IMG/VR virus record: IMGVR_UViG_2571042372_000009
DNA length: 16,793 bases
From: a virus
Taxonomy: Duplodnaviria > Heunggongvirae > Uroviricota > Caudoviricetes
Direction: 5' to 3' (one strand)
A program made the position numbers and the translations under genes. Position 1 is the first letter of the stretch. Each line of letters begins with the position of its first letter. This document shows positions 3,894 to 12,544 of the stretch, piece after piece. The notes under the pieces are model-generated. The model saw only the letters and a list, made by a program, of their open reading frames with translations. It made no database searches and was not told the DNA's origin.

Positions 3894-3993
3894 TTTGTTT
3901 TACCTCATTACAGATTTAAGGGTGAACAAATCCCTGCCGGTGATGCTGCCAACTTACTGATTTAGTGTATGATGGTGTTTTTGAGGTGCTCCA

Positions 3994-4269
3994 GTGGCTT
4001 CTGTTTCTATCAGCTGTCCCTCCTGTTCAGCTACTGACGGGGTGGTGCGTAACGGCAAAAGCACCGCCGGACATCAGCGCTATCTCTGCTCTCACTGCCG
4101 TAAAACATGGCAACTGCAGTTCACTTACACCGCTTCTCAACCCGGTACGTACCAGAAAATCATTGATATGGCCATGAATGGCGTTGGATGCCGGGCAACT
4201 GCCCGCATTATGGGCGTTGGCCTCAACACGATTTTACGTCACTTAAAAAACTCAGGCCGCAGTCGGTAA
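3994..4269 (+). CDS. insA: IS1 InsA (transposition inhibitor / N-terminal part of InsAB' transposase), 91 aa
   Basis: [23 protein letters not shown]... zinc-finger N-terminus characteristic of IS1 InsA; lies inside the IS1 boundaries. Confidence 0.9.
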
Positions 4270-4691
4270 CCTCGCGCATACAGCCGGGCAGTGACGTCAT
4301 CGTCTGCGCGGAAATGGACGAACAGTGGGGCTATGTCGGGGCTAAATCGCGCCAGCGCTGGCTGTTTTACGCGTATGACAGTCTCCGGAAGACGGTTGTT
4401 GCGCACGTATTCGGTGAACGCACTATGGCGACGCTGGGGCGTCTTATGAGCCTGCTGTCACCCTTTGACGTGGTGATATGGATGACGGATGGCTGGCCGC
4501 TGTATGAATCCCGCCTGAAGGGAAAGCTGCACGTAATCAGCAAGCGATATACGCAGCGAATTGAGCGGCATAACCTGAATCTGAGGCAGCACCTGGCACG
4601 GCTGGGACGGAAGTCGCTGTCGTTCTCAAAATCGGTGGAGCTGCATGACAAAGTCATCGGGCATTATCTGAACATAAAACACTATCAATAA
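4188..4691 (+). CDS. insB: IS1 InsB (expressed as InsAB' transposase by -1 frameshift), 167 aa
   Basis: Overlaps the insA 3' end in the -1 frame downstream of the A-run slippery site; length and position as in IS1. Confidence 0.85.
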
Positions 4692-4706
4692 GTTGGAGTC
4701 ATTACC

Positions 4707-5159
4707 GAGAAAGATGATGTCTACATAGCCAATTGTATAGAAAAAGGTAAGACTGAATTTAAAGTAAGCAAAGATATTGCTGCGTTGCCTTTCAAGGGTG
4801 AACCCATCGAGAAAATTAGGGGAGAGCTAATCAGGTCAATCAAGGAACACTTGATCAGTGCAAGCTGGCATAGCACTAAAAAGGTAATCGACCGCTATGA
4901 AGCTACATTCGATATAAAAGTACAAAAAGACTGTCCGATAGAAGCTATTGAATTGGCAACCCTCAATCGAAATCACTTAGTGCATCGTGGTGGAAAGGAT
5001 AAAGAAGGGAACCTCGTAGTGATTACAGACCAGGATCTTGAAACGCTGATTGAAAATGCATCGAACCTGGCAATTATGCTCTACAACAGTTTAAATGTAG
5101 CAACGAATAAAACCACCATTTTGCAACCAGATGACAAACCGTTCATTCATGAATTTTAA
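4707..5159 (+). pseudogene. 5'-truncated ORF interrupted by IS1; product carries a HEPN-like R-x4-H motif (RNHLVH)
   Basis: The reading frame is open from the IS1 right end to TAA at 5157-5159 with no in-frame ATG/GTG. The first possible start is TTG at 4785 with no SD. Motif ...IEAIELATLNRNHLVHRGG... (R codon at 4968-4970, H codon at 4983-4985). Visibly AT-rich relative to flanking phage genes. Confidence 0.5.
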
Positions 5160-6176: not shown

Positions 6177-6492
6177 TTTATGAATCAGTCTGTGGAGTTA
6201 GGGTTGGTGTCAACAAGTAGGGTAAGAGCCTCAACGTGATGCTATGCCGACCTGCTCCCTGAGAATTCACACAGAAGGCTGCTAGCAATGTCTGCAGATC
6301 GCTCAAAGCGGACTAGAAGGTTAGCTTGCGTCGGACTTGGCGTATTTAAAGAAGTGCTGGTGGTGACTGGTTGTTGTGTTCCATTTCTACAGAACAAAAT
6401 CACAGAAACTATACCCAATAGTTATATTGAATCAATGATGAGACAGCCTCATATTTATCAGAACTGGTGTACGTCCAATACAGGAGGTTGTC

Positions 6493-6582
6493 GTGCTGGT
6501 TCTCAAATGTGCGCTAGCTATTGCGGCTGTAATGGCAATTTATTGTCTTGCTGTTGTTCTTATGGATCGCCTTTCTGATTGA
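6493..6582 (+). CDS. Candidate small hydrophobic peptide, 29 aa (GTG start)
   Basis: Consensus SD AGGAGG at 6483-6488, four nt before GTG. Product VLVLKCALAIAAVMAIYCLAVVLMDRLSD is one predicted transmembrane helix. A possible TTGAAT-17-CATATT promoter lies upstream. Not in the ORF track because it is under 60 aa. Confidence 0.3.
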   Translation: MLVLKCALAIAAVMAIYCLAVVLMDRLSD

Positions 6583-6636
6583 TTTTATATTGGCGAGGTG
6601 ACGGGAGTTAAGTAGAATTGCTGCGGGTGCTTGAGG

Positions 6637-6672
6637 CTATCTGCCTCAGGCATGAACACCAAAGGCAGATAG
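6637..6672 (+). promoter_or_regulatory. Perfect 10-bp inverted repeat (CTATCTGCCT ... AGGCAGATAG) in the hok/mok leader
   Basis: Arms at 6637-6646 and 6663-6672 with a 16-nt spacer. Candidate hok mRNA fold-back or antisense-target element, or a protein operator. Confidence 0.4.
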
Positions 6673-6793
6673 AGAAAAGCCCCAGTTAATATTACGCGTC
6701 CTGCAAGACGCTTAACATTAATCTGAGGCTCAATCTATGAACGGCAAATCTAGGTTAGCCTCTTACGTGCCGAAAGGCAAGGAGAAGCAGGCT

Positions 6794-6949
6794 ATGAAGC
6801 AGCAAAAGGCGATGTTAATCGCCCTGATCGTCATCTGTTTAACCGTCATAGTGACGGCACTGGTAACGAGGAAAGACCTCTGCGAGGTACGAATCCGAAC
6901 CGGCCAGACGGAGGTCGCTGTCTTCACAGTTTACGAACCTGAGGAGTAA
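6794..6949 (+). CDS. hokD: Hok/Gef family type I toxin (HokD/RelF-like), 51 aa, nested in the mok frame that starts at 6737
   Basis: MKQQKAMLIALIVICLTVIVTALVTRKDLCEVRIRTGQTEVAVFTVYEPEE matches the Hok/Gef family as recalled. The overlapping upstream in-frame extension (70-aa ORF from 6737) is mok-like. A stable 3' hairpin follows. Confidence 0.85.
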   Translation: MKQQKAMLIALIVICLTVIVTALVTRKDLCEVRIRTGQTEVAVFTVYEPEE

Positions 6950-7019
6950 GAGACCCGGCGAGGGAGAAATCCCTCGCCACCTCTGATGTGTCAGGCATCC
7001 TCAACGCACCCGCACGTAA

Positions 7020-7044
7020 CCCGCTTCGGCGGGTTTTGTTTTTT
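7020..7044 (+). terminator. Intrinsic terminator downstream of hok
   Basis: CCCGC-ttcg-GCGGG hairpin followed by TTTTGTTTTTT. Confidence 0.7.
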
Positions 7045-7116
7045 CCTGGCATTCTGGTTTACAATTCGCACGCCAGCCTGAACAACTGGCACCTGCTGCG
7101 CCAGCAGAGACAACCG

Positions 7117-7395
7117 ATGGCGCACGATACCAAATTACACAATTCTGATGATTCTGCCGTCTTTGCCAGCAGGCACGGGCGGCGTTCCCGCACTTTCAAA
7201 TCTGACTGGTTCCAGCATCCCCCATGCACTGAAGAACAGGCCGAGTGGCTAATTCAGTGCTACCGCAGACACGGATACGAGATTAAGAAAGCCCTCAGCC
7301 TCGATTATCGTCACTGGATAATCTCCGTCAGGCTTCCTTACTCCGAACGATCACCGCGTCCGTCCCGCACATTCCAGCAACGCATCTGGAGGTAA
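7117..7395 (+). CDS. Hypothetical protein, about 92 aa; positional analogue of rem in Qin-type prophages
   Basis: First ATG downstream of the hok terminator in the 6988-7395 frame. Its stop TAA at 7393-7395 lies just before the GTG start of the next gene. No motif recognised. Confidence 0.4.
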   Translation: MAHDTKLHNSDDSAVFASRHGRRSRTFKSDWFQHPPCTEEQAEWLIQCYRRHGYEIKKALSLDYRHWIISVRLPYSERSPRPSRTFQQRIWR

Positions 7396-11319: not shown

Positions 11320-11395
11320 GGCCCTTTAGCTCAGTGGTGAGAGCGAGCGACTCATAATCGCCAGGTCGCTGGTTCAAATCCAGCAAGGGCCACCA
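11320..11395 (+). tRNA. tRNA with CAU anticodon (Ile2/lysidine type or Met), 76 nt
   Basis: Manual fold: acceptor GGCCCTT/AAGGGCC, D-arm GCTC/GAGC, anticodon loop CTCATAA, T-loop TTCAAAT, 3' CCA encoded. Resembles ileX/ileZ-type genes as recalled. Confidence 0.85.
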
Positions 11396-11402
11396 TCACA
11401 TA

Positions 11403-11479
11403 CCGCCATTAGCTCATCAGGAAAGAGCGCCAGCCTTCGAAGCTGGTTGCGCGGAGTTCGGGTCCCCGAAGGCGGTCCA
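11403..11479 (+). tRNA. tRNA-Arg (UCG anticodon), atypical, 77 nt
   Basis: Manual fold: anticodon stem CCAGC/GCTGG with loop CTTCGAA. One acceptor-stem mismatch (A6/A67), one T-stem mismatch, and T-loop TTCGGGT with G at the usually conserved A58 position. CCA encoded. Confidence 0.6.
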
Positions 11480-11492
11480 TTATCTGTATCCT

Positions 11493-11569
11493 GCGTTGTT
11501 AGCTCAGCCGGACAGAGCAATTGCCTTCTAAGCAATCGGTCACTGGTTCGAATCCAGTACAACGCGCCA
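11493..11569 (+). tRNA. tRNA-Arg (UCU anticodon), 77 nt
   Basis: Manual fold: perfect acceptor stem GCGTTGT/ACAACGC, anticodon stem ATTGC/GCAAT with loop CTTCTAA, T-loop TTCGAAT, CCA encoded. Confidence 0.85.
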
Positions 11570-11614: not shown

Positions 11615-11830
11615 CTCACAATTCAGGCGGTTGACTGTTGTCTGGTTTGCGGGGAGTTTGTTAAAAGAAACTGGCATGGTGAATCCCCCTGTGCGGAGGG
11701 GCAATCAGCGAGTAGGTATATGGGATAATCGCGGATTCAGGTGCTGGTACTGAATTCACCGGGAGGCACCCGGCACCATGCAATGGCACATAGCGCCACT
11801 CTCCAGCCCCTCTCCGGAGGGGCTTTTCTG
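11615..11830 (+). ncRNA. Candidate structured noncoding RNA module, copy A
   Basis: Begins just after a terminator with CTCACAATTCAG...TTGACT. Contains three hairpins (CCCCCT-gtgcgg-AGGGG; CCGGG-aggca-CCCGG; GCCCCTC-tccg-GAGGGGC followed by TTTTCT). The same architecture recurs in copy B while the ORFs are not conserved. Confidence 0.4.
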
Positions 11831-12082
11831 TGCCGGATACATCACAGTTTCTGGAACCTTAGGTACTACAGTATCAGTCAGGGTGCTATATTTTCAGATG
11901 TGATGAAAGCCTGTCAGCAGGCAGGGCGTATCGGAAATGACCCAGTAGAGAAAACGTTGACTCAGATACCGGTGCTGAGTTACCGGGAAACCGGCATCAC
12001 ATGACCGCTATCCTTCCAGGCCCATCCGCTCCGGTGGGCCTTTTTACTGCAGAAAACAGGTTCCCCGTTAAATGCTATGTTG

Positions 12083-12317
12083 CTCACAATTCAGTAAGTT
12101 GACAGTTGCCTGTCAGACTGGGCATTTGTTAAAAAAATTTCGCATGGTGAATCCCCCTGAGCGGAGGGGCGACTGGTGACGGTATAATCTCTGATTATCA
12201 AAACGAGAATGACGCGGGTTTAGTGGCACCGGGCTGAACTCACCGGGAGGCACCCGGCACCATGTGCATGATGATACAGATACGCGGCTTTAGCCCCTCT
12301 CCGGAGGGGTTTTCTTG
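12083..12317 (+). ncRNA. Candidate structured noncoding RNA module, copy B (divergent paralogue of copy A)
   Basis: CTCACAATTCAG...TTGACA start, the same three hairpins with conserved stems, and a terminal GCCCCTC-tccg-GAGGGG + TTTTCTT terminator. Preceded by another terminator (GGCCCA...TGGGCC + T5 at about 12019-12045). Confidence 0.4.
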
Positions 12318-12544
12318 TGGGCAAAAAAAGCCCGCGCTGGGAGACGCGGGCGGCAAGGAATAAACAATAAAACGTGAAGTAATATTTCAGCTGGCGAATA
12401 ATACCCCATAGTAATCACTCTGCGCAACTGCGCGGTCTTTTTCGAATTGCGGGCTGTCGTCTCTCTTCTGCCATTGTCCTGTAACTTCCGGACTTCAGCC
12501 CGCTCCTTATTTTACTCACAATATTATCCCGGCCGGGAGGATTC

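Follow-up and report, generated by a model that had tools for sequence, protein, structure and literature searches.

A hokD/hokW-subgroup locus in a defective lambdoid prophage of Escherichia coli, probably a complete hok/mok/sok type I toxin-antitoxin module

In the scheme published for the hok/sok locus (parB) of plasmid R1, the full-length mRNA is shut by a stem between tac (translational activator element) at the 5' end and fbi (fold-back inhibitory element) at the 3' end, and the mok Shine-Dalgarno (SD) sequence is sequestered by ucb. The nascent chain makes a metastable 5' hairpin, 3' processing leads to tac/ucb and SD/dcb stems, and a terminal hairpin shields the processed 3' end (PMC9841398). 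[quoted passage not shown] In E. coli K-12, hokD (relF, prophage Qin) forms the third gene of the relBEF transcript (PMC3598666, PMC6379469), relBE having integrated into an ancestral 70-codon hokD (PMC6379469). K-12 HokD is toxic in overexpression assays, and hok genes are about fourfold enriched in prophages (bioRxiv 10.1101/2025.08.07.668861).

Here we describe a locus of this kind in a 16.8-kb stretch of DNA (IMG/VR record IMGVR_UViG_2571042372_000009), referred to below as the window. We consider it very likely (probability about 0.9) that the region constitutes a hok/mok/sok type I toxin-antitoxin module, complete and belonging to the hokD/hokW subgroup; its features are collected in Table 1. 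The family assignment of the preliminary description, a hok/mok type I toxin locus, is borne out by both protein and RNA models. Hok matches Pfam HOK_GEF (PF01848) with E = 6.4e-22 and 77.3 bits against a cut-off of 22, and Rfam RF01794 ('sok') matches positions 6625-6799 with 113.3 bits against a gathering score of 59 (E = 1.4e-25). The latter match is full-length (model 1-157) and on the plus strand. Since this is the hok-sense strand and the consensus ends at the hok AUG, the model depicts the mRNA leader and not Sok itself.

Table 1 Positions of the module's elements and of selected neighbouring features in the window
Feature	Position	Strand	Details
IS1A	3939-4706		In place of ~5.5 kb found in UTI89
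Putative mini-ORF promoter	6429-6457	+	TTGAAT-17-CATATT; at start of HannyBb homology
Mini-ORF	6493-6582	+	29 codons; GTG start at 6493; SD AGGAGG at 6482-6487
Predicted hok/mok mRNA promoter	6590-6618	+	-35 TTGGCG, 17-nt spacer, -10 TAGAAT
tac	6623-6636	+	mRNA 5' end; partner in the minimum free energy (MFE) fold 6999-7013
Leader hairpin	6637-6672	+	10-bp perfect inverted repeat, 6637-6646 (CTATCTGCCT) with 6663-6672 (AGGCAGATAG); 16-nt loop; inner part of tac stem
Metastable tac partner	6643-6652	+	From inverted-repeat list and nascent-transcript folds
ucb, anti-SD box	6675-6683	+	AAAAGCCCC; in MFE fold 6678-6683 pairs with 6725-6730
Sok antisense RNA gene (by annotation transfer from sokW/sokC)	6745-6675	-	~71 nt; 3' end possibly 6669
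mok SD	6725-6728	+	GAGG, 8 nt 5' of mok ATG
mok	6737-6949	+	70 codons; frame and stop codon in common with hok
Predicted Sok promoter	6780-6752	-	-35 TTGCCT (6780-6775), 17-nt spacer, -10 TAACCT (6757-6752); start G6745
dcb	6758-6762	+	GCCUC; pairs with mok SD region in open form; Rfam consensus structure
hok	6794-6949	+	51 aa; SD AAGGAG at 6779-6784
GAAA hairpin	6957-6978	+	GC-rich 9-bp stem, 6957-6965 (GGCGAGGGA) with 6970-6978 (TCCCTCGCC)
fbi	6999-7013	+	Complementary to tac; one bulged C at 7005
Intrinsic terminator of hok mRNA	7018-7045	+	Stem 7018-7035, AACCCGC-TTCG-GCGGGTT, 7 bp, UUCG loop, then TTGTTTTTT; in common with K-12 hokD

The preliminary description had placed the Hok peptide inside a mok-like upstream frame, and this is indeed a same-frame mok, which aligns with the annotated mokW and mokC. 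It had also described Hok as nearly identical to its K-12 counterpart; the toxin, named HokD in RefSeq (WP_000813256.1), differs from K-12 HokD by a single residue, V46 for A (GCT to GTT). The exact Hok and Mok proteins are each found in at least 1000 contigs. Directly 3' of the codon for this A46V change, the hok Tyr47 codon lies in a UACG context (6932-6935; UUUACGAA). TadA A-to-I editing (Tyr to Cys) has been reported at the UACG motif in hokB, hokC, hokD and hokE mRNAs (bioRxiv 10.1101/2025.08.07.668861).

In a consensus scan the predicted hok/mok promoter has 9 of 12 consensus matches, its -10 hexamer is conserved among related loci, and the hok mRNA is expected from the sequence to start near G6625. 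The tac sequence (GCGGGTGCTTGAGG) is almost invariant across Escherichia loci and has three alternative partners, namely fbi, ucb and the local metastable partner. Downstream of tac, the perfect leader inverted repeat, the 9-bp GNRA-type hairpin at the 3' end and the separate intrinsic terminator behind it are all present as first described. In 1000 dinucleotide shuffles of 6600-7045, with loops of 3-40 nt allowed, perfect inverted repeats of 10 bp or longer appeared in 0.8% and those of 9 bp or longer in 4.7%, and the inverted-repeat and hairpin features are thus unlikely to be due to chance. By analogy with R1 (PMC9841398), the GAAA hairpin probably shields the 3' terminus of the hok mRNA once this has been processed and shortened.

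Folding of 6622-7045 recovered the long-range tac/fbi pairing that had been proposed as a check on the locus: in the MFE structure (z = -8.85) tac is closed on fbi by 14 pairs with one bulged C, and the mok SD is bound to ucb. For the full-length RNA this closed form (-175.4 kcal/mol) is favoured by 9.8 kcal/mol over the open form (-165.6 kcal/mol). When the RNA is truncated at 6985 (6625-6985) it refolds in silico, the MFE structure (-141.2 kcal/mol) now being the open form with tac/ucb and SD/dcb stems; in these folds ucb exchanges the mok SD for tac and the SD exchanges ucb for dcb, while the leader hairpin is present in both conformations. The Rfam consensus structure likewise has ucb paired with tac. 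For an RNA ending at 6992 the MFE is 0.5 kcal/mol below the open form, and the predicted switch therefore hinges on the end point of processing. A nascent RNA of 36 nt folds the metastable hairpin, and the tac/ucb stem emerges at 56-76 nt. Positions in the window can be assigned to all regulatory elements of the R1 scheme.

In a scan of one genome per species, we found 62 related loci, belonging to Escherichia, Shigella, Photorhabdus, Pantoea, Citrobacter, Kluyvera, Erwinia and other genera. The window, 34 of these loci with intact ends and two phage copies were aligned (n = 37; Escherichia, Photorhabdus, Pantoea, Citrobacter, Kluyvera and others), and pairing was counted for four helices, namely the tac/fbi stem, the inverted repeat of the leader, the sokT/Sok hairpin and the GAAA hairpin. 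A standard pair was found in 88.1% of cells for the given structure, compared with 40-46% when the partners were slid by 1-3 columns, and 16 pairs were changed on both sides, compared with 4-8 in the slid versions; none of 500 shuffles matched the observed pairing, double-change or covariation values, although these are related sequences with the structure derived from one of them, and the controls are somewhat inflated. The leader hairpin (helix 2) is 92.7% paired and the GAAA hairpin (helix 4) 97.4% paired, each with three pairs altered on both sides. In the tac/fbi stem the pair U6628-A7008 (alignment columns 15/420) is replaced by a compensatory C-G pair in eight loci. The Photorhabdus rows, which lack the bulged C, are misaligned by one column over the distal part (half) of fbi, so that the counts of unpaired cells in columns 18-23 are overestimated and pairing is understated. 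The mok SD GAGG and the GCCTCTT around dcb are unchanged in all 37 loci. Compensatory changes across genera argue that selection acts on the RNA structure.

The preliminary description had regarded the antisense Sok RNA and its promoter as not identifiable by eye and had left in doubt whether the toxin is still controlled, a view that we revise here, since both can be placed by homology and sequence on the minus strand. When sokW (933W) and sokC (K-12), as annotated in GenBank/RefSeq, were carried through alignments to the window, sokW mapped to 6745-6675 and sokC to 6745-6669. In the 933W record (AF125520) sokW is a 71-nt misc_RNA antisense to mokW, and in K-12 sokC is annotated as antisense to mokC. 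Both hexamers of the predicted Sok promoter are those of 933W sokW, the promoter shown to be functional by mutation. The -10 TAACCT fits the consensus at only three of six positions, which is why the promoter falls below the threshold of a generic scan. The predicted Sok fold has a free 14-nt 5' tail (GCCGUUCAUAGAUU), complementary to the mok start region and covering the mok AUG, followed by a long hairpin and a CUUUU tract; the model thus has the architecture expected for a Sok RNA. Homology and sequence together point to a cis-encoded antisense RNA with its own promoter that overlaps the mok initiation region. The UTI89 sRNA paper (PMC4546395), in which evidence for Sok expression was sought, has hok/sok in its reference list only.

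One of the closest known systems is hokW-mokW-sokW, with ~93% DNA identity over 6605-7021. The two loci have in common the order of elements, the in-frame 70-codon mok, the Sok promoter hexamers, the lambdoid prophage setting and a Sok/sokT hairpin that is 18 nt longer than in K-12 hokC; this longer hairpin also occurs in P1-like phages and plasmid copies and is therefore a common variant. They differ in the sequence 3' of fbi, where the window has its terminator, and in their flanks, the 933W locus lying near the prophage end and the window locus between a moron and the DUF968/rusA/Q genes. They also differ in the Sok 5' tail, at about half of its 14 positions (GCCGUUCAUAGAUU in the window vs. 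GUUCAGCAUGGAUU in 933W). This divergence of tail and target lies at 6732-6745, the remaining Sok being nearly identical, and it makes cross-repression between the window locus and hokW-sokW doubtful.

With respect to the published R1 scheme, tac, fbi, ucb, dcb and the metastable 5' hairpin all have counterparts in the window, as do the presumed mok-coupled translation, the 3' protective hairpin and the free 5' tail of Sok, and the closed-to-open switch is reproduced in silico; the R1 locus is plasmid-borne, whereas that in the window is chromosomal and carried by a prophage. The hokC (gef)-mokC-sokC locus of K-12 has a nearly identical leader (6620-6690), a mokC that is an in-frame extension of hokC, and sokC annotated at the position of Sok in the window. 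In contrast, it lacks the 18-nt hairpin extension, and IS186 about 20 bp past the stop codon cuts off its 3' end and fbi site. In K-12 hokC and plasmid p1540-3, which are independent loci, the ends of IS186/IS421 adjoin the GC-rich 3' hairpin (aligned to ~6965-6975) and remove fbi. IS186 seems to insert preferentially at this hairpin, and hok loci to be inactivated repeatedly in this way.

The locus had also been characterized as detached from any relBE-like partner. It is true that no relBE is annotated within the 16.8 kb (annotation of an identical genome), and hok is not in a relBE-hokD operon arrangement but has its native leader in the window. As a peculiarity of this locus, however, the description does not stand, the K-12 locus being the rearranged copy and the relBE-free form the commoner one. 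K-12 hokD is homologous to the window from ~6781, just 5' of the hok SD, through the terminator at 7045, with 95-100% identity per 20-nt block; the similarity covers the coding region, the GAAA hairpin, fbi and the terminator, and the downstream synteny, DUF968 (ydfU) and Q, is also alike. Unlike the window, K-12 hokD has no hok promoter, tac, leader hairpin, ucb or mok start and lacks the entire Sok gene, because the 3' end of relE replaces them. Among 5426 complete E. coli genomes, the relE-hokD junction was found in 1165 and the intact leader-mok-hok stretch in 4036, about 3.5 times the number with the relBE form. Together with the reported integration of relBE into an ancestral hokD (PMC6379469), these counts mean that the relBE-free state is no oddity: by sequence it is the ancestral and commoner one, and the K-12 arrangement is derived and in the minority.

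The window is a lambdoid, Qin/Rac-like prophage of E. coli, identical at 100% over its whole length to the chromosome of strain FDAARGOS_1301 and a few other strains. Its genes are, in order, integrase, excisionase, exonuclease, IS1A, a truncated gene, a gene for a 333-aa hypothetical protein and hokD, followed by a hypothetical gene, DUF968, rusA, Q, a methyltransferase gene, three tRNAs and lysis genes, which places hok in the early-right (nin-side) region. The ~5.5 kb that IS1A replaces relative to UTI89 contains dicB, ydfABC, a cI-like repressor gene, cro, ydaT and replication genes, and IS1A also truncates the gene at 4707-5159. Relatives otherwise identical to the window retain the full immunity and replication region. 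With IS1 standing where these genes are gone, the prophage is defective and no longer normally inducible. The 551 bases surrounding hok are 100% identical in UTI89, S88, APEC O1, IHE3034, NU14, the E. coli type strain and others, and the records of these named strains carry the annotation 'type I toxin-antitoxin system toxin HokD'; many ExPEC genomes have the identical locus annotated as hokD. Genomes carrying the locus have a median of two, and up to 11, related places.

Some further features of the prophage were noted. The segment 4707-6176, with 36-43% G+C compared to 52-57% downstream, comprises the truncated gene and the gene for the 333-aa protein. Residues 264-311 of this protein match a GNAT acetyltransferase domain below threshold (E = 9e-4), the lone domain hint. 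The segment resembles a moron; phage Evi has other cargo at the equivalent position, a putative acetyltransferase gene on the opposite strand. Neither the 96-aa ORF at 6288-6578 nor the 92-aa ORF at 7117-7395 has a match in Pfam or NCBIfam. A tRNA Ile-Arg-Arg cluster (11320-11569) and two copies of the STnc100 sRNA family (11645-11835 and 12113-12322; 136 and 161 bits) sit downstream of the Q antiterminator and DNA methyltransferase genes, and only pseudogene fragments, including one of DUF1737, lie between this region and the lysis genes.

We have high confidence that the module follows the standard hok/sok mechanism, with transcription, 3' processing, Sok action and toxicity inferred from R1 and hokW-sokW. 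An mRNA of ~420 nt (roughly 6625-7045) would be made from its own promoter and closed by tac-fbi pairing, with the mok ribosome binding site bound to ucb, and would not be translated. Slow trimming of the 3' end toward the GAAA hairpin would then remove fbi, upon which tac would join ucb and mok would become translatable, hok translation being coupled to that of mok. Sok RNA, expressed from its own promoter, would pair with the processed mRNA over the mok start and block or destroy it. Hok, a small inner-membrane toxin, would therefore be made only upon failure of the Sok supply. Structurally the module is intact, and it is probably still self-regulated.

It is possible, if on balance unlikely, that the locus is structurally intact yet functionally silent, a passenger maintained by hitch-hiking and recent descent. 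It would in that case resemble chromosomal hok loci that do not kill after loss or rifampicin; the hokA, hokB and hokC loci gave no post-segregational killing, as summarized in bioRxiv 10.1101/2025.08.07.668861. Replacement of ~5.5 kb of immunity and replication genes by IS1 fits such a view, since in a defective prophage the locus passes vertically with the chromosome and no longer has anything to stabilise or release. Nevertheless, no inactivating lesion was found: both promoters are intact, as are tac, ucb, SD, dcb and fbi, the two reading frames (mok and hok) and the hairpin of Sok, whereas the K-12 copies are disrupted by relBE or IS186. The compensatory changes, as evidence of selection on the RNA structure across genera, and the activity of the 93%-identical hokW-sokW (PMC8621323) likewise speak against a silent passenger.

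Another possibility, which we regard as rather unlikely, is that the main role of the locus is related to phage and not to addiction, either in lysis and release upon induction or in abortive infection against other phages. R1 hok/sok reportedly acts as an abortive-infection defence against T4. The position and orientation of the locus in the lambdoid early-right region are common to other hok-carrying phages, and both the doubling of Sp5 release by hokW-sokW after mitomycin C (PMC8621323) and the prophage enrichment of hok genes agree with such a role. However, the prophage in the window has no repressor, cro or replication genes, so a role tied to induction cannot operate here, and a survey found no enrichment of hok beside defence systems (bioRxiv 10.1101/2025.08.07.668861). 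This alternative concerns the role of the module and not its mechanism, and is compatible with the self-regulated hok/mok/sok module favoured above.

The upstream neighbours are as first described, a mini-ORF and an AT-rich cassette, here a 29-codon frame and the stretch of 36-43% G+C. The mini-ORF ends 8 nt 5' of the hok -35 hexamer and encodes a single hydrophobic helix (MLVLKCALAIAAVMAIYCLAVVLMDRLSD). It is intact in the four lambdoid phages mEp460, HannyBb, Tritos and Evi, with synonymous changes only in Tritos and Evi, three synonymous and two conservative non-synonymous changes in mEp460, and two and five, respectively, in HannyBb. The exact protein occurs in 146 contigs, where its name is invariably 'hypothetical', is unannotated in RefSeq and has no match in Pfam or NCBIfam. 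It seems quite improbable that the mini-ORF product works together with the module, as another small membrane peptide inherited along with hok, and that its transcript, started at the putative promoter at 6429-6457, continues into the locus. Such read-through might extend the hok mRNA at its 5' end or disturb the hok and Sok promoters, and would add a tier of control with no described precedent among hok/sok systems. An antisense promoter-like site at 6611-6582, which might have made the mini-ORF a type I toxin gene with an antisense RNA of its own, was set aside as a chance match because its -10 is not conserved in three of the four related phages.

It is most improbable that the inverted repeat and hairpins serve protein binding or recombination and have no part in hok RNA regulation, as the coincidence of the GC-rich 3' hairpin with IS186/IS421 insertions in K-12 hokC and p1540-3 might suggest. 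Compensatory substitutions preserve the pairing of both helices, a sign of selection on the RNA, and both correspond to named helices of the Rfam and R1 structures.

A complete hok/mok/sok module at this position is not a novelty, as the locus is common and already annotated, and experiments have been done on a close relative. It is a textbook module, and the weight of the finding lies mostly in annotation quality: the RefSeq entry here consists of hokD alone, with mok and Sok missing. The relBE-hokD layout of K-12, which many remember, is the derived and minority form of the locus. Divergent Sok tails would limit cross-repression between co-resident hok/sok copies. The intact hokD-type locus of UTI89-like ExPEC strains may serve as a wild-type comparator for the crippled copy of K-12.
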